From contig JBHGBD010000048.1 of NCBI GenBank assembly GCA_041946825.1, forward strand, positions 1 to 18,965: DNA of 18,965 bases, given 5' to 3'. A model generated the notes under the pieces. The model was given only the letters and a program-made list of their open reading frames with translations. It had not been told where the DNA came from and made no database searches. This DNA is from Terriglobia bacterium. GTDB lineage: Bacteria; Acidobacteriota; Terriglobia; UBA7540. Shown here in pieces: positions 1 to 18,965 of the stretch (its first letter is position 1; each line of letters begins with the position of its first letter). A program made the translations under genes and the position numbers.

Positions 1-272
1 CCGACCTCGACAATGTGCGTAGCAGGCACGAGCAGAGTGCGGAGCAGGAGCGTAGCAGGTGAGAGTCGAAGCGTAGCGGGGTCGTTACGGCGAGTGATTG
101 ACCTTCGGTCTCGGGCAGGGAGACTGCGTGGAACAATCTCACCCTTTAGGGAGCGGGGATCGGACTTCAATTCTCGAAAACGTCGGGAAACAGGCGGCGG
201 AAGATTGCCTCGGGGGTCTTGTACATCTTGAGCGGGGGACAGAGATGCTTAATGGGGCTAAGCAACGCCGAG

Positions 273-297
273 GCGCAGTGACTTAACGTCACTGCGC
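273..297. other. Perfect 10-bp stem hairpin GCGCAGTGAC-ttaac-GTCACTGCGC with no U-tract
   Basis: Read directly. A 7-bp inverted repeat, ATGACGT-N22-ACGTCAT, follows at about 315-350. Confidence 0.5.
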
Positions 298-712
298 TCA
301 AAGACAAACTTCGTATGACGTCCCACTCCATAGGATGAAGGACACGTCATGGAACGCCTTTTGCCTTCCGATGTCCGATCAGGTGTTTGTGTTTATGGGG
401 ATGAAAAGCCAATTTCTTTGAGATGCTCGACGGCAATGTTCAGGGAATACAGGCCCTGATTTCGACCCGTAGACACCTTCCAGCTCGAAGGGCCTGGTTT
501 GCGGTTACGCTAACGCGACTGGCCCATGCCAAATTGGCGAACGTTCTATCGCCTGCCGGGAACGGAATTACCCCTCAGCTAGCGGGTCTCAGATCCCCTA
601 TGCTGAACTCGAACCCGTCCTCCGACACGCGCTGAACGAACCTGCGAGTATTTGGCTGGCGACAACTTCCCTCTTTCCGTGCCGTCGAAGTTCGATCTCG
701 CGCTGAGAGTCG

Positions 713-1036
713 CTATCTGGTCGCGATCTCGGAATTGATTCTGACCACTTTGTTCAATTGCTCGATTTGCGACTTCAGTTCCCGGATTTGCGCCTGCTGC
801 TCTTTCACCGCCTCAACGAGCAGCGCCGTGAGTCGCGCATAGTCCACGGATTTGGCGTCCACGCCGTTCGCTTCATAGGTTACAACTTCGGGAACGACTT
901 CACCCACCTCCTCGGCAATCAATCCGATGTTGTGTTGGCCGTCGGCTTTTGCATCATATGTCACGCCGCGCAGCCGCTCCACGGTTGAGAGCGCCGCGTG
1001 GATCGTTTGTATGTTTGTCTTCCAGCGCCGGGAGCT
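713..1036 (-). other. Peptidase S74 / intramolecular chaperone auto-cleaving domain. The predicted cleavage Ser lies in SSRRWK at about 1034-1036
   Basis: Motif alignment by eye to the S-D-x-R-x-K ... IGxIAQEV ... VDYxxLxxLLVEAIKEL consensus of endosialidase and T5 L-shaped tail-fibre C-terminal domains. Confidence 0.7.
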
Positions 1037-4000
1037 ATAGGTCGTCCACGCATCGGCGATAGGATCGGTGGCCGAAGCCTGCTTCACGGTGAGAATGTTG
1101 CTGGCGTTTGAAATTCCAATCGCCACGTTACCGGGTACGACGAAATCTCCGGAGCTGAGATTCACACTATCTCGCATTACCCTGTAAAGCACGATGGTGT
1201 CAGGAAAGCCGCTGTAGGCGGTCGGTGTAATGCATGCACCACCGGGGTTTCTCCGGCTGAGCACCTGATTCAGAATGAATCCGGTGGTCGTCATGTCGAG
1301 CATCCCGCCCCCGTCCCACGTTCCCAAGTGGCTGTCGGAATAGTTGCTGCTGTATTCTGTCCCAGTACAGCCGGGCACGACAAAATAGGACTCTCCCACG
1401 CCCTGAGGTGCCTGGCAATTGGGGCCTATGCAAACCCCCTTTCTGACCACTAGAGCGTTATCAAAGAGGGCATTTCCACCCGCTACCTGGAACTTCTCGA
1501 CAGGAGAGGCTGTGCCAACTCCGACCTTGTCGCCCGCAAGAACAAGTTGATCCGTCCCTGCTGTCAGGCCGTTGGAGGGCAGGTTCAGTGTTCCCGTCAT
1601 CGTGTCGCCGACCTTGGAGACTTTAGCGAGGTCGAGCGCCGTGTCTGCCGACGTCCGTGCCCCGATTTCAGCGGTATCGCCTGCCTGGCGCGCGCTTGCC
1701 TCGGTCGTGACGTCAGCCGGCATGGCGGGGGTGAAATTCAGCTCTGCGGCTGACACGCACCCGGTGCAGTTCACGTTGTTGGCAGTCCCAACGGGGACGT
1801 TGACGAGACCCGACCCATCGCCGAAGAAGTGTCCGGCGTGGAGGTCATCCGAGAAGAACGCCCCGCCGATGGCGCTCACGTTGAACGTGTAAGGTTGAGA
1901 CGAGGAAAACTCTCCCCGCGAGCCGTCGGACCAGACGAAGGTTTTGTTATGGATTGCCCGGGCGCGGAAGCCGGCGGCAAGGCTCCCTTCGCCCTCCGCG
2001 ATGTTGAACTCACCGCCCGGTACCGTCGATACTCGCCCGCTGGCCGCGTTGTGCTGACCTCCGCCGACGGCGGCATAGGCCCCGTCACCAAATACGTCAT
2101 TGTTGCTTCCCGCTTCGTTATCCGCCCCGCCGGCGACGGTCCCGTAATCGTCCGTCACGCGGTTGGCACCGCTGGTTGCCGAACCGCCCCCGCCGATGGT
2201 TGCACCTCCGTAGGCCCAGCGGACGTAATTCCCGCTCATGCCGCCAATGATATTCGGGCTGTCATAGCCGGACTGGAACACCAGGGCATTGTTGATCGAC
2301 CCGCTCACCCTCAGGTTGCCGTTGACGGTCTGGGTCCCCGTAAAGGCGTTGTCGCCTTGAGTGGTTGCGCGTAGGTCGATTGCAGCTTGAAGCGCCGTGT
2401 CCGCATTGGTGCGGAGCACGGCCTCAGCGTTGAGGTTGCTTTGCAGTGTGATATCGGCACCACTGCGGGCGGTGCTTTCGGCACTATCAGCTGCTTGGAG
2501 CGTTCCGACCTCAGTAGCCAACTGCCCTTGCGTCACCGCGTCTGGAATGTTGCTGATGTTGAGATTGGTCAGCCCCGCCCCATTGCCCGAGAATGAGCCC
2601 GTGAAGGAAGGAGCTGAAATACCACCTGCAGCCCAGACATTCCCACTGCCCTCGACACGGAATTTCTCTCCCTCGCCAGTCGCGCCGCTCAGGATCTTCC
2701 CTCCTTGCTGATTCACGAAGAGTCCGGCGACTCCCGCTGGACTCTCGACGTGCCCCTTTACGCCGATGGTTGTTCCTGTCGTGTCATGTGCCTCGCCGTA
2801 TACGCCTGTACCTGTGGGCCCGTCCGTCATGCCCCTCACGCCAAACGTTGGGCTGGTGCCATCGACTCCCGATCCGTTGCCGGAGGACACAGCATAGATT
2901 GCTGGCGAGTTGCTTACGTTGGTGGCGCGAATCGCGTTTACCCCGTCGGTGTTGAGTTGTTGAGCGATTAGTGCCGCCCCAGAGCCGTTTTGATCCACTT
3001 TGAGTACCTCACTGTCCGTGTTCCCGTACATGCCCTGTTTTCCGTTGAAGTCGTTCCCCACATCCAGCCGCGCGTAGGTCGCGGCGGGGACGTTCCCCAA
3101 AGCAGCCGCGTTTAACGCTTCATTCGCGCTAAGGGCGGACGTGGCTGTCTGGGCGGTGTTGGCAGTCTCTGCGGTTTGTGCTGTCGTCGCGTGCTCAGCA
3201 TTGGCTGCCGTGGCCGCTGTCGTGATACCCGTCAGCCCCGAGCCGTCGCCGGAAAACGATCCGGCCGTGATACTGCCCGGTACTGAGATAGTGCCCTCAG
3301 TCCAGATGTACATCCGGTCTTTGCCGTCTGTCCGGAAAATGAGCGGAGCGACCGTTCCGGGGTCAGTTTGCACCACGCCGTGATCGTTGGCGAAGAACAG
3401 CGACATGGATTTGTTCTCGGAGCTGATGAAATTCAATTGCCTGAAGGTGCCTGAGGGATTCAAGATCTGGATGTCGCTCTGGCCCCTCAGGGTTCCCGTG
3501 AGGTCAAGATTTCCCGAGATGCTCTGGTCGCCTGTGAAGGTGTTGGTCGCAGTGAGTTGCGCAAAGCTGGTAGCAGGTTGCCCGCCCAGCATTTGGGCGT
3601 TTGTGGCGTCGAGCGCCGTAAGCGCACTGGTCGCCGGGCCGTTTTTGGTGCCACTTCCGGCGTAGTTGATTCCCAGTTGCTGATCTACGACACAGTCCGT
3701 GCAGTTGAGCCCTGTCGCTGTCCCGCCTCCGGTTGAAGCGGTTGTCTGCGTAGTGCCGTCGGGAAAGATCAGGCCCGTTCCATCGCCGCTGATTTTCAAA
3801 TTCCCCGCCACCTCCAGCTTTTCCGTAGGAGCGGTTGTCCCGATGCCGACATTGCCGGTCCCCTTGATAAGCATGATCGGGTCTTTGGTGGAGATGTTGA
3901 GGTTGTCTTCCCCTTGAACGGAATCTAGATTCGAGAAGAATCCAATATCGTTCTGCTGGTTGTCGGTGCCCAAAACGACCATATCTTTCTGATCCAGTTG

Positions 4001-7000
4001 CGGACTCGAGTAGCCAAAATAGGCGATCCCGCCTTGGGCCGTGTGCAGTGCCAACCCGGCGCGGCCGTGGGGCATGTCCATGTTGACGTTGAGCCCCGTA
4101 ACGAATTGCGGATAGTCAGTGCCGTCAGGGTTTACACGCAGGCTCCCGCCATCCACATGTAGCCTCTCACCAGGTGCCCCGGTTCCGACGCCTACGTTGC
4201 CGTTGCTCTTCAGGACGGTGAACAACGACTCCCCGTTCCGGTCGATGCTCATATACTGCGGCGCCACACGGTAGAGGAGGCTGAGGCCGACGCCCGACTC
4301 ATCCTCTTCCATGAACTCGATGCCGTTGGGTCCGCCGCCACCGAGGCGTATCTGGGGGTTTGAGCCTCTGATGTCGAGCGCACGCTGCGGGGTGAGTGTG
4401 CCAATCCCCGCCTGTCCAGTCGTCGTCAGGTTACCCGAAATGCTCTGGTCGCCCGAAAAGTTATTGGTGCCGCCCAGGACGGCGGGAGCGAACGCCAGCG
4501 CGCCGCTGGGGATATTCGTCAGCCCCGAGCCGTCGCCGGAAAAGCCCGACGCTGCCACCGTGCCGCCGACCATGAGGTCGTTCGAGAAGAACCCCCCGCC
4601 CTGGGCGCGCACGACAAACTGGTTGTTGCCGGTGGAGGACACGTCGTCATCCGTCGATCTGTCGCCCCAAACGAAAGTGCCGACCTCAATCGCTTTGGCG
4701 TGGTATCCCGCAGCGAAACTGTGTTCGCCAAGAGCCTGGTTGTAAGAACCACCAGGCACAGTGGCGGCATAGGCGCCGGCCAGGTTGTGCTCGCCCCCGC
4801 CCACTGTGCTGTCGTTGCTGTTGGCTTCGTTGTGGTTGCCCCCCGCCACGGTCGACTTGGCGCCGCTGGCCGTGTTATCCGCCCCCCCACCCACGGTCGC
4901 GAAAGCAGCATTGTCGGCGCTTTCGGCATTGTCCCCCGCCTGGTTGTTGACGCCACCCGCGACTGTGCTGAAGTCGTCCGTCACACGGTTGAACCCGAGG
5001 CCCGCGTTTCCACCCCCTCCAATCGCTGCCCCTTGCACGTCTGGCACGACATAGTTGCCACTGGTGCCAGCGATGAAGTTCGCGCCGTACGGGTCGCTGC
5101 CCTGGATTACCAGCCCTCCATTGATTGAGCCAGTCACCGAGAGGTTTCCGCTAATGCTTTGGTCTGCCGTGAAGTTATTAGTGCCGCCCAAGTCGGCGGG
5201 AGCGAACGCCAGCGCGCCGCTGGGGATATTCGTCAGCCCCGAGCCGTCGCCGCTGAACGATGCCGCCGACACGTTGCCCGGCGTCGTGAGGTTGGCCGAT
5301 CCGCTTTCAAAATTCACGGCGGTGAGGGGAGTACCCGAGGCGTCGACTCCAGTAATGAACCTGAAACCGCCCGTGGCGCGGGCGACGAAAGAGTTCCAGC
5401 CGGCGTCGGTGACGTCGGCGTCGGTCTGGTCGCCCCACACGAAGCTTCCACCACTTGTGGCTTTGGCACGGTTACCTGCCGCGAAGCTGGAGAACCCTGC
5501 CGTGTTCTTGAAGCCTCCCGGCACGGTCGCAAAAACGCCATCGGCGATGTTCTGGTCTCCTCCCCCCACGCTGTCGGCCCAGTTCCCGGCGGTGTTGCCG
5601 CTCCCGCCCGCCACCGTCGAAGCCCCGCCCTTCGCGGTGTTGCCCGCTCCACCCGCGACCGTATCGGCCCATGCGCTGGCTTTGTTTCCATCACCTCCGC
5701 CGATAGTTGCGCTCGTCCAGCCAGGTCCCGCCGCAATGTTATTCACGCCCCCGCCGATAGTCGAGCCTCCTGCGTTGGCTTTATTGAATACGCCGCCGGC
5801 CACAGTGGCACAGCAGGCGTCATCGAGCGTTCCCGCGTCGTCCCCCGCCTGATTGCCAGCTCCGCCGCCGATGGTGCTTGTGACGTCCGTGACGCGGTTA
5901 GGGTACAGGACCTCGCCGCCGCCGCTAATCGTGACCGTGTGCAGCCCTGGCGCAATGTAGTTGGCACTAGAGCCGGCAAGTATATTGGGGCCATCTGCGG
6001 TGGTGTCGATCCGCAGTCCGTTGGAGCTGATCGCACCCGTCAGGCTAAGGTTTCCAGTGACGGTCTGGTTGCCGACAAAAAGGTTTGTCCCTAGTGTGGC
6101 CACGCCGGTGACATCGCCTACAGGGTGGGTATGAACAAGCTGTGAATATCGCGCGTCCGTGTAGCCGGTATTGAGATCTAGCCTGCCCGTAGTTCGAATC
6201 GGCCCTCCCGTCAATCCAGGACCGGTCATGATGCTGGTAACGGTTCCGCCCGTTCCCGTGGGGAAGCCATTCAGATCCAGGTAGGAATTGGCGCGCACGT
6301 TGCCCCCACCATCGACGCTGAACATCTCAGTTCCCGGTGCGACGCCAGAACGGCCACTCAGGATCTTGCCGTTCGTGTCGGTGGTCAGGAACGAGCCCGC
6401 GACACCTGTGGCGCTATTCACTTGGCCCCCCACGCCGACGGGGATAGCGGTTGTGGAAATGGAAGAGGCATATCCAAAGATGCCGGTACCAGTCGCGCTA
6501 GTACTGGCCCCGTGGACGCCAAAAGTCTGCCCGCTTACGGCCGTGGCCTGTCCACGGACTGCGGCTTTGCCGCTGGTCGGGCTCACAACGATTGCAGACA
6601 ACGCGTCCCCTGTGCCGTTCTGCTGGACGGATACCACCTGGTTCGTGGTGGTGTCGGCGAAGCTCGTTGCGGGTGTAGTTTTGGGCGCGCCCCCACCGGC
6701 GGCAGCAGGTGCGGCGGCAAGGGCTTTGCCAGTCGAGGCCGCCGTCGTTTGCGCCGGCATGAGCACCGCGACGGCGGTGCGCACTTTCTGCTCAAGTTGC
6801 TCCGCGAGGACGAAATCCGAGGCACGTTTGCCCCCGAGTTTTGCCGCGTCTTCGGCTTTGAGAGCGTAAGGGACACTCACCATCAGGACACGCGGATCCT
6901 CATCGCGATTCTCAACCTGGACACCCAGCCATCGCGCTTTTCCGGCAGGAAAGAGTTCGACGGGAACGCCCGTGTTCGCAGTCGCTCCCAGCAGAACCGT

Positions 7001-7291
7001 GTAGCGGCCCTGCTCATCGAGTTGGATGACCTGGGCTTCATTCCATAGCGCCGTGCCGCCTTGCGGCTCTTCATAAACTGAAAACGTGAGCCGCACAGCA
7101 ACGTTGCCGATCGGTTCGCCGTTGCGATCTCTTACCACGCCGTTGAACTGGATCAACCGCGGCACTGGCGCGACGGAGGTTTGGCTGGTCTCGGCCGTCG
7201 GCTCCGACTGCGCGATCGCCGTAAATGGAAGACCGACCGCCAACAGCAGAAGAATGAATGTCATCCGGAAGACACGTGTAGGGCGACGCAT
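713..7291 (-). CDS. Giant secreted fibrous protein (~2192 aa), phage tail-fibre/tailspike-like. It has Hep_Hag/YadA-head-like 14-residue repeats and a C-terminal intramolecular chaperone (Peptidase S74) domain
   Basis: The ORF 713..7342 is uninterrupted. I place the start at the ATG at 7291 because GGAGGTG sits 5 nt upstream (plus-strand complement cacctcc, 7297-7303). A classic signal peptide follows: MRRPTRVFRMTFILLLLAVGLPFTAIA|QSEP. The C-terminus reads ...YSSRRWKTNIQ...HNIGLIAEEVGEVVPEVV...VDYARLTALLVEAVKEQQAQIRELKSQIEQLNK, which matches the endosialidase CIMCD / S74 consensus (S-x-R-x-K dyad) plus a terminal coiled coil. There are many repeats of the form xTVxGGxxNxAxG and five copies of F(S/F)G(D/N)G(S/A)GL(T/V)N. 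Confidence 0.85.
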   Translation of the reverse strand: MRRPTRVFRMTFILLLLAVGLPFTAIAQSEPTAETSQTSVAPVPRLIQFNGVVRDRNGEPIGNVAVRLTFSVYEEPQGGTALWNEAQVIQLDEQGRYTVLLGATANTGVPVELFPAGKARWLGVQVENRDEDPRVLMVSVPYALKAEDAAKLGGKRASDFVLAEQLEQKVRTAVAVLMPAQTTAASTGKALAAAPAAAGGGAPKTTPATSFADTTTNQVVSVQQNGTGDALSAIVVSPTSGKAAVRGQATAVSGQTFGVHGASTSATGTGIFGYASSISTTAIPVGVGGQVNSATGVAGSFLTTDTNGKILSGRSGVAPGTEMFSVDGGGNVRANSYLDLNGFPTGTGGTVTSIMTGPGLTGGPIRTTGRLDLNTGYTDARYSQLVHTHPVGDVTGVATLGTNLFVGNQTVTGNLSLTGAISSNGLRIDTTADGPNILAGSSANYIAPGLHTVTISGGGEVLYPNRVTDVTSTIGGGAGNQAGDDAGTLDDACCATVAGGVFNKANAGGSTIGGGVNNIAAGPGWTSATIGGGDGNKASAWADTVAGGAGNTAKGGASTVAGGSGNTAGNWADSVGGGDQNIADGVFATVPGGFKNTAGFSSFAAGNRAKATSGGSFVWGDQTDADVTDAGWNSFVARATGGFRFITGVDASGTPLTAVNFESGSANLTTPGNVSAASFSGDGSGLTNIPSGALAFAPADLGGTNNFTADQSISGNLSVTGSINGGLVIQGSDPYGANFIAGTSGNYVVPDVQGAAIGGGGNAGLGFNRVTDDFSTVAGGVNNQAGDNAESADNAAFATVGGGADNTASGAKSTVAGGNHNEANSNDSTVGGGEHNLAGAYAATVPGGSYNQALGEHSFAAGYHAKAIEVGTFVWGDRSTDDDVSSTGNNQFVVRAQGGGFFSNDLMVGGTVAASGFSGDGSGLTNIPSGALAFAPAVLGGTNNFSGDQSISGNLTTTGQAGIGTLTPQRALDIRGSNPQIRLGGGGPNGIEFMEEDESGVGLSLLYRVAPQYMSIDRNGESLFTVLKSNGNVGVGTGAPGERLHVDGGSLRVNPDGTDYPQFVTGLNVNMDMPHGRAGLALHTAQGGIAYFGYSSPQLDQKDMVVLGTDNQQNDIGFFSNLDSVQGEDNLNISTKDPIMLIKGTGNVGIGTTAPTEKLEVAGNLKISGDGTGLIFPDGTTQTTASTGGGTATGLNCTDCVVDQQLGINYAGSGTKNGPATSALTALDATNAQMLGGQPATSFAQLTATNTFTGDQSISGNLDLTGTLRGQSDIQILNPSGTFRQLNFISSENKSMSLFFANDHGVVQTDPGTVAPLIFRTDGKDRMYIWTEGTISVPGSITAGSFSGDGSGLTGITTAATAANAEHATTAQTAETANTAQTATSALSANEALNAAALGNVPAATYARLDVGNDFNGKQGMYGNTDSEVLKVDQNGSGAALIAQQLNTDGVNAIRATNVSNSPAIYAVSSGNGSGVDGTSPTFGVRGMTDGPTGTGVYGEAHDTTGTTIGVKGHVESPAGVAGLFVNQQGGKILSGATGEGEKFRVEGSGNVWAAGGISAPSFTGSFSGNGAGLTNLNISNIPDAVTQGQLATEVGTLQAADSAESTARSGADITLQSNLNAEAVLRTNADTALQAAIDLRATTQGDNAFTGTQTVNGNLRVSGSINNALVFQSGYDSPNIIGGMSGNYVRWAYGGATIGGGGSATSGANRVTDDYGTVAGGADNEAGSNNDVFGDGAYAAVGGGQHNAASGRVSTVPGGEFNIAEGEGSLAAGFRARAIHNKTFVWSDGSRGEFSSSQPYTFNVSAIGGAFFSDDLHAGHFFGDGSGLVNVPVGTANNVNCTGCVSAAELNFTPAMPADVTTEASARQAGDTAEIGARTSADTALDLAKVSKVGDTMTGTLNLPSNGLTAGTDQLVLAGDKVGVGTASPVEKFQVAGGNALFDNALVVRKGVCIGPNCQAPQGVGESYFVVPGCTGTEYSSNYSDSHLGTWDGGGMLDMTTTGFILNQVLSRRNPGGACITPTAYSGFPDTIVLYRVMRDSVNLSSGDFVVPGNVAIGISNASNILTVKQASATDPIADAWTTYSSRRWKTNIQTIHAALSTVERLRGVTYDAKADGQHNIGLIAEEVGEVVPEVVTYEANGVDAKSVDYARLTALLVEAVKEQQAQIRELKSQIEQLNKVVRINSEIATR
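4479..4537. repeat. 59-bp exact intragenic direct repeat, copy 2
   Basis: Identical to 5194-5252 (within +-1 nt). A third partial copy, cgtcagccccgagccgtcgccgg, is at about 3228-3255. Confidence 0.8.
5194..5252. repeat. 59-bp exact intragenic direct repeat, copy 1 (encodes GDGSGLTNIPSGALAFAPA)
   Basis: cggcgggagcgaacgccagcgcgccgctggggatattcgtcagccccgagccgtcgccg is identical at 4479-4537. Each copy is embedded in a roughly 715-bp diverged tandem module. Confidence 0.8.
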
Positions 7292-7296
7292 GGAAT

Positions 7297-7303
7297 CACC
7301 TCC
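7297..7303 (-). promoter_or_regulatory. Shine-Dalgarno GGAGGTG for the giant gene
   Basis: The reverse complement of 7292-7310 is cagtcttGGAGGTGattcc, followed by ATG. Confidence 0.5.
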
Positions 7304-7746
7304 AAGACTGTCAGGCAGCGCGAGTGATAACGCTGGGCACACTTCTGTCTCGCTTGGAGCGAGTTTGATTCACACCGTGCAGTTCACCTGCCATACCGCA
7401 AACTGGTTGCAGGAGAATGTCACAGTGCTGGAATTGTCGCATCGCAGTTAGTATTGTGAGGTTGAGGAAAGACCGATAGCTCTTGGAGCAGGAAGCCTGG
7501 ATTTGGGCGAGTTGCCCTAGTGGAACTCATGGAGCAGTGTGCCTCAAACTGCAACTTAAGATGAAACGTTTTGCGACTGGGTGTTTACGGATGTCATATC
7601 ACTCTACTTACTAAGGATGGAACCAAGGGGCCCGATACGGATCGCCATCACTCAACGAGCGAGAGTCTCTTGCGATTTGTATATTCCCCCGAGCATTATC
7701 TCAACAGATATCATGCTGAATCTTTAGATTATCCATTCGACTCTTA

Positions 7747-7761
7747 GTGACATTGTGTCAC
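7747..7761. promoter_or_regulatory. Perfect palindrome GTGACA-TTG-TGTCAC, a candidate operator
   Basis: Read directly. It is a 6-3-6 inverted repeat in the non-coding spacer. Confidence 0.3.
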
Positions 7762-8285
7762 ATCGACTTTGAGTCCGCGGGTTCGAAGGGAGACGTTAGG
7801 TGATTGTGGATTTGGCCGAGCCAGATCGCGCCCTAGAAAGATGCGACGCAAGTGAAGTACTCCGCTGCTCGCTTTCGCGCTGCGCGAAGTTCCGCCACGG
7901 ACTGAGATGGGATTTCGGTTCGATGTTGCGGAGATGACCTTCACAGTCGGATTTGTGAGCTTGTGCCTTGGGAGGGCGGCGCCCCGAAAGGATGCTCGAT
8001 CGGTTTGGAATTAGAATTCGGTGAAAATCAGGCGTCTGCATTCCATCGACGTCTCTCGCCCGATATATTGTGATCGGCGCAGCCGAATACGCACACCGAA
8101 GTAACGAACTCGTCGCATTACTCGCCGGTGGTGCACACAGCTGGGAGATTTCCTGTTGCGTTTCGTGTCCGTTCGGACCGGAAGCAAGTAAACCACCCGG
8201 CATTTACCGCCAACCCTTCCAGTAGTAGCACCAGAACCTTCACCAGCACAACCATGGTCCCAGGACGAGTTGTGGCGATCGTCAC

Positions 8286-8293
8286 GGGGGGGG
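8286..8293. repeat. G8 homopolymer tract in the non-coding spacer
   Basis: gtcacggggggggcaac. This is a potential slipped-strand site. Confidence 0.4.
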
Positions 8294-8498
8294 CAACAGG
8301 TGCTCGATTTCTGTTCGGGTTGTGTGGTAGGGCCGGGAGGGATCACGCTCAGAAAGTCACGCCGGGACCGAAACCCTAACCCCGTTTCCATTGCCATCCT
8401 GACATCTGACCTACTCCGCCGCCACCAATAGAGAAGGGTCACATGGAATTCTCGGGGATGCCCCGGGAGGGCAAATCTTCTCATCCCAAGTGTCCTCA

Positions 8499-9371
8499 TT
8501 ATGAGAGCCGATGGGCGACTACCGTCATTACGGCGTCCCGCAGTTCAGTGCCCGGCATCAACCGCTGGCTCCACCGCGCGTACCACGTGAAGTAGTAGTT
8601 CATGCAGTCGGGGCTGTACTCCGGAATCAGCCCGTCAGGTCGGGTGGAACGAATGATATCCTTTGGATCTTTGCCAACGGGGATCTGCCAAAGCTCCGGC
8701 GCCTCGTGCCGCATGTCCCACCACCGCGCTCCGTACGGCCCCCAGCGGAGTTCATTAATGAGCTGCTCTCTATAACCATCAGATAGGTCCAAGGATTCGA
8801 TCCATTCCATCGTCGCCGCCACCAGTACGTCGATATATCTCGTGCGCTCTTGCTGGTCTGACTCCAAGCGTTCTTGGTGCTCGCGAACCCTTCTGGCGCC
8901 GCCTATTTTGAGCGCCTGCCGGCAACTGAGCCTTCCCTGCTGAATCAGCAGCTTCTCATCCTTGGTCAGCTCATTCAGCCGCAGGTATTGGCGGACGAGA
9001 CCCTCGGAACAGCCAAGCGCCTTCGCCAACGCTCGTCGCGAATGGCCGGCCTCGGTGAGCAGCGCCAGGCGCAGGCTACGTTCGGATGCTGAAAGGTGGG
9101 CCCATTCGACCCGAAGTTGCTCGATTTCGGCTTCATCCCCGATATCCAGAGGGCGCAGATCATCGCTGACCGTTCGGCCGATTGCCGCACCTGGTGCAGC
9201 GTTCCCCGCAGGCGCGCCAGAGGGCTCGTTCGCCATTTCGCGATGCGCTTGGCAATTAACACCAGACCCAGCGCTACTTCCCGGCGGAGGAGTGGTGGAC
9301 TCCCCCCGCTCGGGCATATCGCACGAACTGGCGCCAGCGTAGGCTGCGCTCGGCGAAGGCCGCCTGCCCAT
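8499..9371 (-). CDS. ParB/KorB-like helix-turn-helix DNA-binding protein with a C-terminal domain of unknown function
   Basis: The ORF 8499..9533 opens with TTG. The first ATGs are at 9371 and 9236 and neither has an SD, so the start is uncertain. The HTH segment HSRRALAKALGCSEGLVRQYLRLNELTKDEKLLIQQGRLS resembles the ParB/Spo0J pattern (LAxxLGxSxxxVxxxLRLLxLxxEVxxLIxxGxLS). The first 50-100 residues are low-complexity (S/P/G-rich). The stop overlaps the next downstream frame as TAATG. Confidence 0.5.
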   Translation of the reverse strand: MGRRPSPSAAYAGASSCDMPERGESTTPPPGSSAGSGVNCQAHREMANEPSGAPAGNAAPGAAIGRTVSDDLRPLDIGDEAEIEQLRVEWAHLSASERSLRLALLTEAGHSRRALAKALGCSEGLVRQYLRLNELTKDEKLLIQQGRLSCRQALKIGGARRVREHQERLESDQQERTRYIDVLVAATMEWIESLDLSDGYREQLINELRWGPYGARWWDMRHEAPELWQIPVGKDPKDIIRSTRPDGLIPEYSPDCMNYYFTWYARWSQRLMPGTELRDAVMTVVAHRLS

Positions 9372-9627
9372 GGACGCGGACGAAGGCTCGCTTGGCACGC
9401 TTACGGATTCGTTCGAGCTTGCGAAGGAGCCGCCCCGCTGCTGCCCCGTGATTGAGTAGCCAGCTTCGAATATGCCGGTGGCGAACGAGCTTGGTCGTGA
9501 CGCGCACCGCCAAGATACAGGCTGCCAGATCAAAGGCGCTCATACTTAGGCGGTGAAGAGGACCTTCCTTGGAGGAAAGACGAGCATGAAGGTCAACCAC
9601 GAAACCGGTGCTCGCGGAAGGCTGCCC

Positions 9628-9676
9628 CGAATTCGTAAACCGTAGGTCGGGGGTTCGATTCCCTTCGCCGGCTCCA
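9628..9676 (+). tRNA. tRNA-like 3' partial, Thr(CGU)-like. It has the anticodon loop TTCGTAA, a variable loop, the T-arm GGGGG-TTCGATT-CCCTT, the acceptor 3' strand CGCCGGC, discriminator T and CCA, but no canonical 5' half. It is a probable att-site remnant or tRNA pseudogene
   Basis: By coincidence the coordinate 96NN equals the standard tRNA position NN. T54-T55-C56-G57-A58 sit at 9654-9658, G53 and C61 are present, and CCA is at 9674-9676. The 5' acceptor strand (9601-9607, gaaaccg) pairs at only 3 of 7 positions, and the D and anticodon stems are broken. The intact part is the roughly 45-nt segment that tyrosine integrases typically duplicate. Confidence 0.4.
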
Positions 9677-9798
9677 ACCTTTCATCTCGACTTTCTAATC
9701 CAAAGGCTCGTGCGCGGGGTTCCCGGCTTTGAGGATTCGCCCTCAACCCTGGGGAGGACACCGGGCATCCGATTTGACTTGGGATTTCCGCGGAAACC

Positions 9799-10077
9799 TC
9801 AGGGTGCGGGCGTGGTAGCTGTAGGCGAGACGGAGCCTTCCTGGGGTTCCTTGAGCTCCCGGTCGTAGGCCTTGCGCGATCGCGGATTACTCAGGACTCT
9901 GTAAGCCTCGGTGATTTCTCGGAAGCGGTTTCCTTCAACCCCAGGGGTCACGTCGGGATGATATTTCTTGACCAACTCCCGAAAACGTTGGCGAATTGCT
10001 GTTCCGGTAGCATTGGCTGGGACACCGAGGAGTTCGTAATGCGTGTACTTCGGCGTTGCCGCCCTGCGCTCCACCAA
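9799..10077 (-). CDS. Small stand-alone J-domain (DnaJ-like, HPD motif) protein, about 92 aa
   Basis: KYTHYELLGVPANATGTAIRQRFRELVKKYHPDVTPGVEGNRFREITEAYRVLSNPRSRKAYDRE is a canonical J domain. The ORF stays open up to 10323. However a strong SD, GGAGGAA (complement at 10084-10090), sits 6 nt before the TTG at 10077 and 9 nt before the GTG at 10074. The stretch upstream of these uses many rare A/T-ending codons. I therefore prefer the short form. GC3 is lower than in the neighbouring genes. Confidence 0.55.
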   Translation of the reverse strand: MVERRAATPKYTHYELLGVPANATGTAIRQRFRELVKKYHPDVTPGVEGNRFREITEAYRVLSNPRSRKAYDRELKEPQEGSVSPTATTPAP

Positions 10078-10083
10078 GAACTG

Positions 10084-10090
10084 TTCCTCC
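10084..10090 (-). promoter_or_regulatory. Shine-Dalgarno GGAGGAA for the J-domain gene
   Basis: The plus strand reads ttcctcc, and TTG/GTG follows on the minus strand. Confidence 0.45.
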
Positions 10091-10512
10091 CCACCGTGAC
10101 CTCTATCCGCGAATGCCCGAAGCCAGGCAGCCGACACGGCATGGCACAAACTTGCCCAAGCCGTATGGCTATGTCGAAAGTTAGTGGGTATATGCAAAAA
10201 AGTCAAGGAAAGAGACGACATGGACTGCGAAGTCCCAACTGCAAATCCTGAGTCGACAGCGCTCTTAAGCAGCCTTGAGTTTAACACTCGATACACATCT
10301 TTCCCTACCCCCAGATCTTTCATCGAGACCTTTCTTGGCCCTCGGAATTTATCGCTCGCGCCTGCAATTCAAGCCTCAGTGCAATTAGCGGATCGACCTC
10401 GGTCGCCCGGCGGTGAACTTGGTCCCCGACCCAAATGGTGTGCTCGGCGTCAGATCCGGCCTCCCTCGTGCTACCCCTTGCGCTTCCCTGCCCGATGCGG
10501 TTTGATAGGGGC

Positions 10513-11688
10513 ATGAAAATCACATGGACTTCCGCGCTACTCCTTGTCCCGTTAGTCACCCAGTTTGATTTAATCTCTGCCGGGCAACTGTCCGCCAAGC
10601 CGCCGGCCAAGGGGAAATATCTCGTCTACATTGGAACCTACACCGGCCAATACAGCAAAGGGATATACGCCTACGAGTTCGAATCGCGTAATGGCCAACT
10701 GAAGCGGCTCGGGTTAGTGGGGGAGACGCCGAACCCTTCCTATCTGGCCATCCACCCCAGCCAACCGTTTCTGTACGCCGTGAACGAAGTGGACAACTAC
10801 GAAGGCAAGAAAGCCGGCTCGATCACTGCATTCGCTTTCGATGCCAGGTCGGGGAAGCTCACCTTGCTCAATGCAAAATCGACACGCGACGCGGATCCAT
10901 GTTATGTGACGGTCGACAAAACCGGGAGATACGCCCTGGTCGCGAATTACGGCGGCGGCAACGTGGCGGCGATTCCGATCGGCAAGGACGGCCGCCTGGG
11001 CGAGGCGTCTGCATTCATCCAGCACACCGGCCACGGCACCAACCCGGAGCGCCAGGAAGGCCCGCACGCACATTCCATCAACCTCTCGCCCGATAACCGT
11101 TTCGCGGTCGCGGCGGACCTCGGACTGGACGAGTTGCTCGTTTACCGCTTCGACCCGACGAACGGCTCCCTTATACCCAATGATCCTCCCTTCGCCAAAG
11201 TCCAACCGGGCGCCGGGCCGCGTCATTTCGATTTTCATCCTCGCGGCAAATTCGCCTACGCCATCTGCGAGATGGGATCCATTATCACCGCGTTTGCCTA
11301 CGACGCGGCGGCCGGAACATTGCAGGAATTGCAGACGATTTCGACCCTACCCAAAGACTACGCGGGCAGCAACGACGATGCCGACATTCATGTGCACCCT
11401 TCCGGCAGGTTTCTCTACGGGTCCAATCGAGGCCACGACAGCATCGCGGTGTTCGCGATCGATCCCGACAAAGGCACGCTGACGCTTGTCGAGCATGTCT
11501 CGACACAGGGCAAAACCCCGCGCAATTTCGGGATCGATCCTTCAGGAAGTTACCTATTCGCTGCCAACCAGGATTCTGACAACATCGTCGTCTTTCACAT
11601 CGATTCCAAAAGCGGGCGCCTGACCCCAACCGGCCAGACAATCGAAGTCCCTTCGCCGGTATGCGTGAAGTTCGCGGCGGCGGAATAG
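10513..11688 (+). CDS. Secreted lactonase-family 7-bladed beta-propeller protein (6-phosphogluconolactonase / 3-carboxymuconate cyclase-like)
   Basis: The ATG at 10513 starts a signal peptide, MKITWTSALLLVPLVTQFDLISA. The sequence repeats the YxxxxxG..P..xxxHPSGRFLY(xN) blade motifs, for example LAIHPSQPFLYAVNE, VDKTGRYALVANY, LSPDNRFAVAADLG, FHPRGKFAYAICE, VHPSGRFLYGSNRG and IDPSGSYLFAANQ. Confidence 0.8.
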   Translation: MKITWTSALLLVPLVTQFDLISAGQLSAKPPAKGKYLVYIGTYTGQYSKGIYAYEFESRNGQLKRLGLVGETPNPSYLAIHPSQPFLYAVNEVDNYEGKKAGSITAFAFDARSGKLTLLNAKSTRDADPCYVTVDKTGRYALVANYGGGNVAAIPIGKDGRLGEASAFIQHTGHGTNPERQEGPHAHSINLSPDNRFAVAADLGLDELLVYRFDPTNGSLIPNDPPFAKVQPGAGPRHFDFHPRGKFAYAICEMGSIITAFAYDAAAGTLQELQTISTLPKDYAGSNDDADIHVHPSGRFLYGSNRGHDSIAVFAIDPDKGTLTLVEHVSTQGKTPRNFGIDPSGSYLFAANQDSDNIVVFHIDSKSGRLTPTGQTIEVPSPVCVKFAAAE

Positions 11689-12125
11689 CGGAATACTTGG
11701 GTTGTCGGTTGTGAGTTCTTAGCTGAGGCTGTTTGACACAGGTTTTCAGCTCGCGATTCGCAACCCTCACCATCGGCGGCTGGCCCCCACGAGCGGTTCG
11801 TGATTCATCCCCCCGCCCTTCGGCGCCCCCGCCATTTGCTTCCGGTTTCTTGCTTCCCTCTCTCGCCTCAAACTCATCATTCCCATAAGAATTTCCGATT
11901 TCCATCCCCCGGGAAACGGGCGCAGTTGTGCATCCACAAAGTCGTTGGGAGCGCTCAAGGATTTGCCCTTATGGTCATACCATTTCCTCGATGGAGCAGC
12001 CGTGCCAGTGCCAACGTGCAACTGGGGTCTGAGTGCCAGGCGATCGGCATTCGGTTGTTGATGTTTGGGGCTGGTCAAGCGGCAACGAGCAGCGCTGACC
12101 CCGGAGTATCGAATCCGCTCTTTAA

Positions 12126-12137
12126 TCCACTGTTCAC
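12126..12137 (+). promoter_or_regulatory. TCCACTGTTCAC, an exact 12-mer shared with the MgtC upstream region. It is a candidate operator about 82 nt upstream of the esterase ATG
   Basis: The identical 12-mer is at 15231-15242. At both sites a second CCACT or CACTGTCCACT half-copy follows 3 nt downstream. Confidence 0.4.
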
Positions 12138-12218
12138 GATCCACTACAACTTCCCCCTTGCCTCCGACCGGTACTCGCCGTTAACATCCGCGCACTCGAA
12201 GAATACTGAGGAGAGCCC

Positions 12219-13790
12219 ATGCGCATATTATCAACCAGGAATTTCACCTTACTGCTGAGCATGCTGGCGCTCATGGCGCCAAGCACCCTCGCGGAGGTCA
12301 AGCTCCCGGCGTTTTTTAGTGACAACATGGTTTTGCAGAGCAGCGCTAAAGACCTGGTCTGGGGCACGGCTGAGCCGGGCGAACAAGTGACCGTATCGAT
12401 CGCGGGCCAGAAGGCCACGGCGGCCGCCGACAGTCAGGGCCGGTGGAGGGTCGAGATAGGGCCGCTCAAGCCCGGCGGCCCCTTGGAGATGACGATCGCT
12501 GGAAGAAATTCCATCACGATTCACAACATCGCGGTCGGCGAAATCTGGATCTGTTCCGGCCAGTCGAACATGGAAATGGCCGTGGGCAACAGCCCGCGCG
12601 CCTGGGGCGGCGTCATGAACTCCGCGCAGGAAATCGCGGCGGGCAATTTCCCGATGATCCGGCAATTCATGGTCAAGCACGCGGTGGCTGGCCGGCCGCA
12701 ATCCGACGTGCAAGGCCAATGGCTGGTCGCAAGCCCGCAGACTGTGGGCGAGTTTACGGCCGTGGGATACTTCTTCGGCCGCGATCTGCACAAGGCCCTC
12801 GGCGTTCCCATCGGCCTGATTCACACTTCCTGGGGCGGGACACCTGCCGAGGCCTGGACGCGAACTTCCACCCTTTCCGCCGATCCTGACCTGGCCTCGA
12901 TGGTCGCCGACTGGTCGCACAAGATTTCCGAATATCCCAGCCTGCTCAGGAAATTCCGCGAGGATTTCGATCAGTGGGAACCGGCCGCGAGCGCCGCCGA
13001 GAGCGAGGGCAAAATTGCGCCAAGACCCCCGCAATTCCCGGAAGATCCCAGGAGCAACCCGTGGCGCGCCGGCGGGCTCTCGAACGCCATGATTGCGCCG
13101 CTCATTCCCTACCGCATCGCCGGAGCGATCTGGTACCAAGGCGAGTCGAACGCCGACCGCGCCTATCAGTACCGCAAGCTTTTCCCCGCCATGATTCAGG
13201 ACTGGCGACAAGCCTGGGACGAAGGCGATTTTCCTTTCCTCTTCGTGCAACTCGCGAATTTCGTGCAGGACGACGGGCCCCCGACTTCCTGGGCGGAATT
13301 GCGCGAGGCGCAGTCCATGGCGTGGTCGCTGCCCAATACTGGCATGGCGACGGCTGTCGACATCGGCAATCCCTACGACATCCATCCCAAAAACAAGCAG
13401 GAAGTGGGCCGCCGCCTGGCGCTGGCCGCGGAAGCCATCGCCTATGGCAGGAAGGTCGTCTATGCCGGACCCATCTATGGATCAATGAAAGTGGAGGGCA
13501 GCGCCATTCGCGTGACCTTCAAGCACGTGTCCGGCGGGCTGGTCGCTAAGGGCGGCACCACAGCGCTCAAAAGTTTCGAAATTGCCGGCGAAGACCGCAA
13601 GTTCGCTCCGGCCGAAGCGACAATCTCGGGCAGGGATGTAGTCGTACGAAGCGCGCAAGTTCCCCGCCCGGTCGCCGTCCGTTACGCGTGGGCAGATGAT
13701 CCCGAGTGCAGCCTGTATGGCAAGAGTGGCTTGCCGGCGTATCCGTTCCGCACCGATAATTGGCCGGGAGTGACGGAGGGAAAGAAGTAG
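12219..13790 (+). CDS. Secreted SASA-domain carbohydrate esterase (sialate 9-O-acetylesterase family, SGNH-like)
   Basis: The SD GAGGAGA at 12208-12214 precedes the ATG at 12219. The signal peptide is MRILSTRNFTLLLSMLALMAPSTLA|E. The hallmark GQSNM motif appears in GEIWICSGQSNMEMAV, a later WYQGESN block follows, and the length of about 520 aa is typical of SASA-domain esterases. Confidence 0.8.
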   Translation: MRILSTRNFTLLLSMLALMAPSTLAEVKLPAFFSDNMVLQSSAKDLVWGTAEPGEQVTVSIAGQKATAAADSQGRWRVEIGPLKPGGPLEMTIAGRNSITIHNIAVGEIWICSGQSNMEMAVGNSPRAWGGVMNSAQEIAAGNFPMIRQFMVKHAVAGRPQSDVQGQWLVASPQTVGEFTAVGYFFGRDLHKALGVPIGLIHTSWGGTPAEAWTRTSTLSADPDLASMVADWSHKISEYPSLLRKFREDFDQWEPAASAAESEGKIAPRPPQFPEDPRSNPWRAGGLSNAMIAPLIPYRIAGAIWYQGESNADRAYQYRKLFPAMIQDWRQAWDEGDFPFLFVQLANFVQDDGPPTSWAELREAQSMAWSLPNTGMATAVDIGNPYDIHPKNKQEVGRRLALAAEAIAYGRKVVYAGPIYGSMKVEGSAIRVTFKHVSGGLVAKGGTTALKSFEIAGEDRKFAPAEATISGRDVVVRSAQVPRPVAVRYAWADDPECSLYGKSGLPAYPFRTDNWPGVTEGKK

Positions 13791-13791
13791 T

Positions 13792-13808
13792 CAGTCGTCA
13801 GTTGCCAG
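13792..13808. repeat. CAGTCGTCAGTTGCCAG. This is one copy of the recurrent CTGGCAAC-TGACRACTG element family (minus-strand sense), in the 3' region between the convergent esterase and MgtC genes
   Basis: Read directly. It shares GTCAGTTGCCAG with 15168-15179 and 15734-15752. Confidence 0.6.
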
Positions 13809-13843
13809 TACGCGCGGGCAAATTTGCGGTTTCGTGGATTTCC

Positions 13844-13868
13844 CCGTCTACCGTATGCCGTCTACCGT
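13844..13868. repeat. Tandem CCGTCTACCGT x2 (plus a degenerate third copy, GCCGTTTACCGG) in the convergent intergenic region
   Basis: ccccgtctaccgtatgccgtctaccgtctcc. Confidence 0.5.
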
Positions 13869-13882
13869 CTCCTGCTTGCCGT

Positions 13883-15142
13883 TTACCGGCTCGCCGCCAC
13901 CAGACAAGACGCAAGGGTCACGATGAATAGCGCGAGGAAAATCGGCGCGATCACCGGGCGTAGCGGCTTGCCGCCGATCACGACGGCGATGCCGCCCTTG
14001 ACCAGCGTATTCATCGCGCAGGCGAGTAGGATGGAAGCGTTGGCGGTCGAGGGCACGAGGACATTCTCGCGTGCCAGGCGCGCCATGGAGACGGTGATAG
14101 CATCCACGTCGGTCAAGCCGGCAAGCGCGCTGGCGATATAAACACCTGCCGAGCCAAAATAATGGTGCGCCGCGGTGGCCACAAAGAGCACGACGGCGAA
14201 CAGCAAGGCGAACTTCAAGGCTTGGCCGAGGTCCATCGGGTTCTTTACTTTCAATTGCGCCTCACCCTCGGCAGCTTTGCTTCTCCATAGATAGACCGCA
14301 ACTCCCACGCCCACCAGCGCGGGCATGCCAATCAACCACACCAGAGCCTGGGCGAGCGATGGGTAAATCACGAGTGCCAGGAACCAGACGCGAAAATACA
14401 TGATGGTCGAGGCGATCACGAGCCCAAGCGCAAAGTAGCGAGCCATGGCCGCCTCGGCTTCGCGTGCCTTCTCCGACAGGCCAAAGGTCACCGCCGTGCT
14501 CGAAGCGAGCCCACCCAGAAATCCGGTTACAGCGATTCCCTGCCGCGCCCCCATGAAGCGCATCAGGACGTAACCCAGCATGCTGACGGCGGAGATAAGG
14601 ACCACCATCCACCAAACCAGACGCGGGTTGAGTACCTCAAACGGCCCAAAGGCGCGGTCGGGCAGAAGCGGCAACACGATGACCGTTACGATCGCGAACT
14701 TCAGGATGGCGTACATCTCCTCTTCCTGGATCTTCTCCGCCAGTTGGTGCAGCGGAGCTTTCATGGAGAGGAGGAGCGTCGTAACGACGGCAAAGATGGC
14801 GGCCGGGATCAAATAGTCGAACGCCGCGAGCGCTCCCAACACAAACGTGAGGATGGCGACGAGCTCCGTCGTCGCACCCTTGTGTTGGCCTTGCGCGGTG
14901 ACGTAATACGCGGCGACGGCCACCGCCGCGACGCCGGCCAGCGCCACCGGCAGGACCCACGGGACTCCGGCGCGCGCCATCAGCGCCGAAAGGAATCCGG
15001 TCAAGGCAACGACGGGAAAAGTGCGGAAGCCCGCGAAAAGCGGCTCATCCTCTTTCTGCGAGTGCTGCCGCTCGAGGCCAATCAGCAGGCCCATCAGCAG
15101 CACCATGGCGCCATTCTGGGCGATTTGCAGGATGCTGGGCAT
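13883..15142 (-). CDS. MgtC/SapB-family membrane protein with a C-terminal DUF4010-type polytopic domain
   Basis: The N-terminus MPSILQIAQNGAMVLLMGLLIGLERQ carries the MgtC signature (LIGLER). About 10 further hydrophobic segments follow. It is the last gene of the minus-strand flotillin operon. Confidence 0.75.
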   Translation of the reverse strand: MPSILQIAQNGAMVLLMGLLIGLERQHSQKEDEPLFAGFRTFPVVALTGFLSALMARAGVPWVLPVALAGVAAVAVAAYYVTAQGQHKGATTELVAILTFVLGALAAFDYLIPAAIFAVVTTLLLSMKAPLHQLAEKIQEEEMYAILKFAIVTVIVLPLLPDRAFGPFEVLNPRLVWWMVVLISAVSMLGYVLMRFMGARQGIAVTGFLGGLASSTAVTFGLSEKAREAEAAMARYFALGLVIASTIMYFRVWFLALVIYPSLAQALVWLIGMPALVGVGVAVYLWRSKAAEGEAQLKVKNPMDLGQALKFALLFAVVLFVATAAHHYFGSAGVYIASALAGLTDVDAITVSMARLARENVLVPSTANASILLACAMNTLVKGGIAVVIGGKPLRPVIAPIFLALFIVTLASCLVAASR

Positions 15143-15150
15143 GGAAGGGC

Positions 15151-15179
15151 GGTTGTCAATAGGCAGTTGTCAGTTGCCA
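15151..15179. repeat. GTTGTCA-ataggca-GTTGTCA-GTTGCCA. This is a CTGGCAACTGACAACTG-family element immediately upstream of the MgtC start. On the minus strand it also contains TTGACA
   Basis: Read directly. Confidence 0.6.
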
Positions 15180-15199
15180 GAAACGAATGGTTTCTTCCG

Positions 15200-15225
15200 G
15201 CTTCTTACTTCCAGCTTCTCACTTC
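15200..15225. repeat. Direct repeat CTTCTTACTTCC-ag-CTTCTCACTTCC in the MgtC leader / CA 3' region
   Basis: Read directly. Confidence 0.5.
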
Positions 15226-15230
15226 CTTCT

Positions 15231-15256
15231 GTCCACTGTTCACTATTCACTGTCCA
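15231..15256. promoter_or_regulatory. TCCACTGTTCAC-tat-TCACTGTCCACT. It holds the 12-mer shared with the esterase upstream region, duplicated, about 90-115 nt upstream of the MgtC start
   Basis: It is an exact 12-mer match to 12126-12137. At the esterase site the motif is on the same strand as the gene, whereas at the MgtC site it is on the opposite strand. Confidence 0.4.
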
Positions 15257-15262
15257 CTCTGC

Positions 15263-15721
15263 TCACACCGGCTCAACAATGACCCGGTCCGACGAATCCC
15301 AACCGGCGTAGTAGAGATCCACGCGCATATCGGGAAATTCTTTGTTCAATACCGTTCTCGCGCGGTGCAGATCCTCCTCTTGGCGGCGCCTCGGGTCCGA
15401 TGTCGTGTGTAAATGCAGCGGCAACTCTTTGTACCAGCCGCAATCCTGGTGCGCAATCAAGATCAGGCGCTTCAACTCGTGGGCATCAACGAGAAAGCGA
15501 AACCACTTCATCCCCGCCCAGGAGAACTTGGGCAGGTATTCGACCAACGTCAGGCATTGCGGCCCGCCGGGGAGCACGAGCAAGTCGTAGTTGCTGCGGA
15601 GATTCAGACCTTGGTTCAAGAAGTCCTGCAGCCCGGCCACGAAGCGGTGGTCGCTGCAATGGACGACCAGCACGTCCGTGTGGGCGTGCTCGACTTTCGA
15701 AGAGGAAGTATATGCAGGCAT
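15263..15721 (-). CDS. Small beta-class carbonic-anhydrase-like protein (152 aa) with CxDxR and HxxCG zinc-ligand motifs
   Basis: VVHCSDHRF matches C-x-D-x-R and IAHQDCGWY matches H-x-x-C-G, with spacing compatible with short Cab-type beta-CAs. It sits in the operon between the flotillin and MgtC genes. Confidence 0.5.
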   Translation of the reverse strand: MPAYTSSSKVEHAHTDVLVVHCSDHRFVAGLQDFLNQGLNLRSNYDLLVLPGGPQCLTLVEYLPKFSWAGMKWFRFLVDAHELKRLILIAHQDCGWYKELPLHLHTTSDPRRRQEEDLHRARTVLNKEFPDMRVDLYYAGWDSSDRVIVEPV

Positions 15722-15728
15722 GGATGTT

Positions 15729-15756
15729 CAGTTGTCAGTTGCCAGTTGCCAGACGC
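15729..15756. repeat. Tandem heptads CAGTTGT-CAGTTGC-CAGTTGC-CAGACGC (CTGGCAACTGGCAACTGACAACTG on the minus strand) between the flotillin stop and the CA start
   Basis: Read directly. Confidence 0.6.
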
Positions 15757-15793
15757 CAGCTATCACTCCCGGAGATTGGAGTCAAAGTTTCCG

Positions 15794-18893: not shown

Positions 18894-18965
<72 letters not shown>

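Follow-up and report, generated by a model that had tools for sequence, protein, structure and literature searches.

The feature in question is a stretch that reads as the 3' part of a tRNA gene and is joined on its 5' side to DNA of no tRNA character. The question that it raises is whether an integrating element left it behind, or whether it is what remains of a tRNA gene lost in some other way. The window analyzed was a whole MAG contig of 18,965 bp, with its left end inside the presumed island and its right end inside a tRNA gene. The stretch (9632–9676, + strand) is very probably a displaced 3' fragment of tRNA-Thr(CGU) that forms the right-hand end (attR-type junction) of an integrative element. 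This reading is supported because the same fragment and the same break recur in other genomes, because whole islands are found in relatives, and because the DNA on the right is the native flank of the tRNA and that on the left lacks the conserved upstream neighbors.

The 45-nt fragment (TTCGTAAACCGTAGGTCGGGGGTTCGATTCCCTTCGCCGGCTCCA) lies in exactly the register of a tRNA 3' part. From 9632 it comprises a 7-nt anticodon loop (TTCGTAA, or UU-CGU-AA), the 5-nt 3' strand of the anticodon stem (ACCGT), a 5-nt variable loop (AGGTC), a T arm (GGGGG/TTCGATT/CCCTT), the 7-nt 3' acceptor strand (CGCCGGC), the discriminator T and CCA. A preliminary description of this DNA had listed an intact T-arm, 3' acceptor strand, discriminator, CCA and anticodon loop beside an unpaired 5' side, and the sequence is as described there. 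It had also taken the whole of 9601–9676 to be derived from a tRNA, which held for 9632–9676 and failed for 9601–9631, a segment that is not tRNA-derived at all. The intact 76-nt tRNA-Thr(CGU) of Terriglobia consists of GCCGGCGTAGCTCAGTCGGTAGAGCAACGGT followed by the 45-mer, its 3' 45 nt being identical to the window fragment. Compared with this tRNA, the window matched at 45/45 positions in the 3' part and at 11/31, the level expected by chance, in the 5' part (9601–9631), where unrelated sequence occupies the expected place of the tRNA 5' half at the element-side junction. Zero contiguous identity to the tRNA 5' half extended beyond 9632 in the 5' direction. The fragment is terminal rather than internal, matching the tRNA through the discriminator and CCA, and identity to the tRNA sets in with the first anticodon-loop base, which is the anticodon-centered ('A') att sublocation. 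The 45-mer was single-copy in the window and had 0 occurrences in 200 shuffles with up to 3 mismatches allowed, and no other piece of tRNA-Thr of at least 13 nt was found anywhere else in the window.

The window was searched with ARAGORN, a tRNA finder of the kind that had been proposed as a check, and 0 tRNA and 0 tmRNA genes were called, at this site or elsewhere. Rfam models applied at permissive thresholds to 9600–9680 returned nothing beyond a 13-nt T-loop match of 10.9 bits. The predicted fold was not a cloverleaf, and with a 5' half at chance identity and no tRNA from ARAGORN or Rfam, the stretch did not qualify as a functional tRNA. A tmRNA 3' end, or one piece of a two-piece tmRNA, was considered on account of the GGGUUCGAUUCCC T loop and was rejected, as that 13-nt match was the sole one and the full 45 nt are those of tRNA-Thr. 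Two ORFs overlap the fragment (9546–9761, − strand; 9608–9868, + strand); neither had a Pfam match, so no conserved domain is overlapped.

One genome per bacterial and archaeal species was scanned for the exact 45-mer, which yielded 61 loci (given L numbers below), all from Terriglobia or Acidobacteriota MAGs. The 62 copies at these loci were assigned by 5'-half identity to 49 intact tRNA-Thr(CGU) genes, 12 fragments without a 5' half and 1 copy cut by a contig end. ARAGORN called a 76-nt tRNA-Thr(CGU) over the match in 48 loci and called none over the 12 fragments or the contig-end-cut copy. All 12 of the other fragments lost tRNA identity 0–4 nt 5' of the window's break position, a uniformity that is to be read with the design of the search, which demanded the full 45 nt. 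In at least 13 loci, an integrase homolog closely follows the 3' end of the intact tRNA. With no fewer than 12 fragments and 13 sites occupied by integrases among the 61 loci, tRNA-Thr(CGU) is a recurrent integration hot spot in Terriglobia.

The DNA to the right of the fragment was compared with the loci that carry an intact tRNA. Directly after the fragment comes a native intergenic region (9677–9798) in which the spacing from tRNA to DnaJ is as in relatives and which is unlike the element arms; in alignments of the 40 nt after the CCA with the other loci, the best score was 7, against a shuffled mean of 7.6. The first native chromosomal gene encodes a small J-domain protein (9799–10323, − strand; PF00226, E 5e-19), although probably only the C-terminal ~90 codons of this frame are the real gene. 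It is followed by a native block (10513–17383), recognized by Pfam matches and synteny, that encodes a lactonase, a SASA esterase, an MgtC/DUF4010 protein, a putative carbonic anhydrase-like protein and a flotillin. An intact tRNA stands just upstream of the window's right-hand genes in 9 relatives. L039 and L066 have the J-domain gene directly 3' of the intact tRNA-Thr; 3' of it lie the SASA esterase in L021, L040 and L053 and MgtC/DUF4010 in L002, L008 and L023, with the carbonic anhydrase-like gene and the flotillin following in L002 as they do in the window. Closer relatives (78–81% aa identity) were obtained from a metagenome scan with the lactonase as query. The best of these in which the site is visible, L066 (~78% aa identity), has the order amidase, DUF6599, intact tRNA-Thr(CGU), J-domain gene and then, after two further genes, lactonase and SASA. 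Between the end of the tRNA and the J-domain match lie ~161 nt in L066 and in the window alike, and ~177 nt in L039. A comparison with relatives lacking the segment, as the preliminary description had suggested, thus returned empty sites, of which L066 is the closest and L039, L021, L040, L053, L002, L023 and L008 are further examples.

Several other features of the right-hand side were recorded. Between the J-domain gene and the lactonase, 3–4.4 kb is present in L066 (4264–8720) and L064 (203–3130), and the window's counterpart (10324–10512) is without this segment. In L066 it encodes a MacB/FtsX-type permease and a thioredoxin-like protein and represents an indel beside the att site. A C-terminal remnant of the SASA esterase (residues ~435/460–523) stands alone 3' of the fragment in L038, at 5021–5287 in L065 and at 12301–12567 in L066; in L038 it is all that is left of the gene beside the fragment. 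At the far right of the window (18897–18965, − strand), a tRNA gene of the tRNA-Ser type, with the anticodon loop GCU and a long variable arm, is 5'-truncated by the contig end. It was the only feature of the window to pass the Rfam gathering threshold, narrowly (29.3 bits), and was not called by ARAGORN, since its 5' part is missing. The possibilities that the element lies on the right, or that a second island is arrayed in tandem there, were likewise considered and rejected: the right side is native flank, carries no integrase, and has after the CCA 40 nt that resemble no other locus above chance.

On the upstream side of the tRNA, DUF6599 ends ~290–300 nt before the tRNA gene in 6 syntenic relatives (L002, L008, L021, L022, L040 and L053). 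L023 and L039 have the same upstream similarity as the DUF6599-bearing relatives, and the amidase precedes DUF6599 immediately where the order was read. The DUF6599 profile search gave 366 matches. Both conserved upstream genes, DUF6599 and the amidase, were absent from the window, and positions 1–9631 had no similarity to the 61 loci by tblastx or tblastn, the conserved upstream genes of those loci included.

These flanks bear on the possibility that a complete tRNA-Thr decayed where it stood and lost its 5' half through accumulated mutations. The fragment does lie exactly where relatives have an intact tRNA-Thr, and no tRNA was called in the window, both of which would fit. Decay would, however, spread along the gene, whereas identity steps from 45/45 to 11/31 at one position; the same step is found in 12 other genomes, and not only the tRNA 5' half but also the upstream DUF6599 and amidase genes are gone, with unrelated DNA instead. 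Because of the abrupt step, its recurrence in the 12 genomes and the replaced upstream genes, decay in place was rejected as scarcely credible. The decayed pseudogene that the preliminary description had held out as its alternative therefore falls with the 45/45 versus 11/31 step. Intact tRNAs in related genomes had been expected there to speak for simple local decay; such tRNAs were indeed found, but they are what the empty sites of an integrating element should contain.

Since the right flank is the native flank of the tRNA and the left 9.6 kb matches none of the 61 loci, placement of the element on the left is supported, with its putative last base at 9631 and native DNA from 9632. An element on that side had been claimed from the outset, and the claim agrees with a right flank that is native in 9 relatives, L066 among them, and with a left side devoid of the conserved upstream neighbors. 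The fragment thus fixes one boundary of the inserted segment to the base, and it marks the ParB-like gene as accessory rather than core DNA, with the giant fiber gene probably in the same category.

The left side was then described gene by gene, from the fragment outward. From the ParB-like gene to the fragment runs the element-side arm (9237–9631), which showed no similarity to the 61 loci; a 108-codon ORF within it (9274–9600, − strand) is of doubtful reality and had no Pfam or PHROG match. A search of 8400–9900 for repeats that could serve as arm-type integrase sites gave short repeats at chance level only. The last recognizable gene on the element side encodes a 245-aa ParB-type helix-turn-helix protein (ACE145_21300; 8499–9236, − strand; PF17762 HTH_ParB, E 5e-5). 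Among 5.8 billion proteins its sole homolog was a 73% identical, 285-aa paralog from the same MAG (ACE145_06895, on a 283,846-bp contig), so that this ParB-type HTH family is so far known from 2 copies, both in one MAG. No match to the ParB-like protein was found in viral contigs, metagenome contigs, phage genomes or plasmids. A second copy of a related element may be present where the paralog lies. Next comes a 1.2-kb stretch without a credible gene (7292–8498), in which G+C is 49–55% as against ~60% elsewhere. The ORFs there (7796–8203 and 8011–8499) had no significant family match, and neither Rfam nor protein-family searches of the stretch gave a match; a long promoter or leader is one possible role.

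The largest gene of the window (713–7291, − strand) encodes a 2192-aa secreted repeat protein with a signal-peptide-like N terminus and a C-terminal Peptidase_S74 intramolecular-chaperone domain (PF13884, E 1e-12, residues 2103–2154). It is annotated as a tail fiber domain-containing protein, and its PHROG tail-fiber matches fall mainly in the last ~100–130 residues. Several modules are internally repeated, for example a recurring 'FSGDGSGLTNIPSGALAFAP' stretch. The protein is nearly an orphan, with a best homolog that is 43% identical over 19% of its length. In the closest fiber homolog with a readable context (P0004), the gene is located between FtsK/PilZ and YdjC/NADH-dehydrogenase genes, that is, in core chromosome. 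An ordinary chromosomal gene can also encode a giant S74 protein, which counts against the element reading. No counterpart of the giant fiber gene was found near tRNA-Thr in relatives. Position and lost synteny are what point to the fiber gene as a putative cargo of the element, which would then include this gene and be longer than 9.6 kb.

Apart from the weak ParB-type HTH, no classic mobility gene was detected in the left 9.6 kb. The visible 9.6 kb did not read as a prophage, the phage-like matches falling mostly in the C-terminal S74 region of the giant protein. No integrase is encoded in the 9.6 kb visible on the element side, and the position expected for one lies beyond the contig end; the window likewise holds no intact tRNA-Thr and no second att copy. 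The restored tRNA and the integrase would be found on another contig of the same genome. It is a tentative and rather doubtful suggestion that the left-hand DNA belongs to an undescribed kind of Terriglobia integrative element whose cargo is a giant secreted fiber or adhesin capped by a self-cleaving S74 chaperone and whose one visible accessory gene is that of the ParB-type HTH protein. If this were true, giant surface fibers would be able to spread among soil Acidobacteriota by way of tRNA-Thr(CGU) islands.

Composition was compared across the junction for signs of foreign origin. GC3 was 0.69–0.71 for the two left-hand genes and 0.57–0.79 for the right-hand genes; dinucleotide distances between left and right were within the range seen between right-hand segments, and G+C likewise showed no contrast. 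These values are relevant to an artifact of assembly, in which the island end of one Terriglobia population would have been joined to the native tRNA flank of another through the common 45 nt. Such a chimera could arise from a 45-mer that is identical in more than 50 Terriglobia species, in a window that is a short MAG contig, and in one assembly (DASRCX01) two contigs do share an upstream flank and diverge at the tRNA. The final k-mers of common assemblers are longer than 45 nt, however, which counts against a join of this kind, as does the similar G+C and GC3 on both sides. A chimera was judged highly improbable, and even then the fragment and the island-end junction would be real in one genome and the nature of the feature would be unchanged.

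Whole islands bounded by an intact tRNA and the fragment were seen in relatives, which supports integration at the tRNA, the preferred explanation. In L014 (JAKASC010000078.1) the order is intact tRNA, tyrosine integrase, 7,318 bp, fragment; the integrase (PF00589 Phage_integrase, E 2e-26, with SAM-like N-terminal domains) is encoded on the opposite strand. On JAIQGH010000013.1, two 8-kb blocks carry complementary parts: L022 has DUF6599, the tRNA and an integrase, and L038 has the fragment followed by the SASA remnant, MgtC/DUF4010 and the carbonic anhydrase-like gene. A 203-codon recombinase-like ORF spans the join of the two blocks, and because it runs across this junction they are taken to be adjacent, which would give an island of ~6.6 kb. 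L022/L038 then reads as a second complete island, at the window's own chromosomal site. Twelve fragments sharing the break, a complete island in L014 and another, if the blocks adjoin, in L022/L038 support the initial claim that a 3' tDNA fragment here marks the distal end of an element with a tyrosine integrase.

The islands of L014 and L022/L038 use the same target tRNA and the same 45-nt repeat as the window, and L038 also occupies the window's chromosomal position: in both, MgtC/DUF4010 and the carbonic anhydrase-like gene stand on the right of the fragment. They differ from the window in size and content: the two islands are 6.6–7.3 kb long and carry integrases, whereas the window's element would exceed 9.6 kb if it is one unit, and neither their genes nor their island-side arms have any similarity to the window's left side.

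Further observations were made on individual loci. In L022 and L014 the integrase frame runs on without a stop codon across the tRNA gene, on its antisense strand; the end of the L022 ORF overlaps the tRNA (1298–1373, − strand), and its tail reads '...GEGNRTPDLRFTKPLLYRLSYAG...'. The C termini of these integrases may have been annotated too long, or the integrase gene may reach across the att site. Near-identical 45-nt element-side sequences (gccaaccgtgccgcaaaatcaatgagataccc...) were found in 4 assemblies, next to the fragments of L025 (276–320), L035 (3442–3486), L047 (975–1019) and L059 (fragment at 458–502), a likeness in sequence that indicates one widespread, putative family of Terriglobia tRNA-Thr islands. 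In L014, L026 and L038, an inverted repeat (GTTGATTCT..N..AGAATCAG) lies within the island close to its end, ~10–30 nt from the fragment, and may be a candidate binding site of a second element family. L030 has an integrase gene directly 3' of the fragment (6285–6329, − strand) and not of an intact tRNA, which suggests a tandem island array, and L057 has two integrase-like genes in tandem 3' of the tRNA. L001 and L015 (DASRCX010000032.1 and DASRCX010000079.1) have an intact tRNA with an identical upstream flank, and L047, from the same assembly, has a fragment; this is the pattern expected from an assembler fork at the tRNA if the population is mixed for island presence.

The complete islands also bear on whether the tRNA in this genome was disrupted and never repaired, either by an insertion that restored no tRNA or by a rearrangement between copies of the 45-nt repeat that brought another chromosomal region to the left side. 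Loss of tRNA-Thr(CGU) may be tolerable if a UGU isoacceptor is present, and this would count in favor of such a disruption. The contig has no intact copy, as is also true of what is shown by 2 of the 12 fragment-bearing assemblies, and the left side offers neither an integrase nor a compositional contrast. In the other 10 of these 12 comparable assemblies, however, an intact copy is also present, and MAGs are incomplete. The break point moreover coincides with the integrase-type identity block of the complete islands, and in Islander it is restoration of the tDNA that defines the detectable island signature (PMC4383910). An unrepaired disruption was therefore considered quite improbable.

Under the integration explanation, the window would have arisen as follows. 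A circular element would have carried an attP site containing a copy of the last 45 nt of the tRNA. Its tyrosine integrase would have recombined attP with the tRNA gene, with the crossover in or near the anticodon loop. The copy brought by the element would have completed the tRNA at the upstream junction, leaving the cell with a working gene, and the 3' 45 nt of the original gene would have ended up at the opposite end of the element, where the native downstream DNA still follows them. What the window shows of the element would then be its arm, followed leftward by the ParB-type HTH gene, the 1.2-kb spacer and, probably, the giant S74 fiber gene. The fragment itself would have no tRNA function, and its sole role would be that of a recombination site for excision.

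The fragment was compared with two published bodies of work. PMC9897764 deals with non-canonical tRNA gene fragments in prokaryotic genomes that annotation wrongly lists as tRNAs or pseudogenes. Like the fragments treated there, the window fragment is an incomplete, non-functional piece of tRNA-derived DNA that one could take for a pseudogene; it differs from them in being called by neither ARAGORN nor Rfam, so that it carries no risk of mis-annotation with these programs. The second comparison was with genomic islands or prophages that tyrosine integrases have inserted into tRNA genes. The mechanism of tRNA-gene integration is summarized in the Islander paper (Hudson et al., 2015, PMC4383910; Williams, 2002, cited there). 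The signature used in Islander is a tDNA with a downstream 3' fragment in the same orientation and the island between them, and 3' fragments were present in 3760 of 3919 islands and anticodon-centered sites in 2083 of 3919 (PMC4383910).

The window differs from islands of the Islander type in that only the fragment end is visible, the contig being without an integrase and without an intact tDNA, and its ParB-type HTH gene and 2192-aa S74 fiber-like protein are untypical of phage or ICE machinery. It agrees with them in its terminal 3' fragment that extends to the CCA, in a 45-nt identity block that starts in the anticodon loop, and in the direct contact of the fragment with native downstream DNA. 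The relatives supply the rest of the arrangement: intact tRNA, integrase, island and fragment follow one another there and are oriented as Islander requires. L014 shows directly that a full-length cognate tDNA precedes the 3' fragment with matching orientation, and L022 and L038 show the same if the two blocks are adjacent. Integration into a tRNA gene with displacement of a 3' fragment is textbook biology and is used by island-finding software, and the window is a new example of it.
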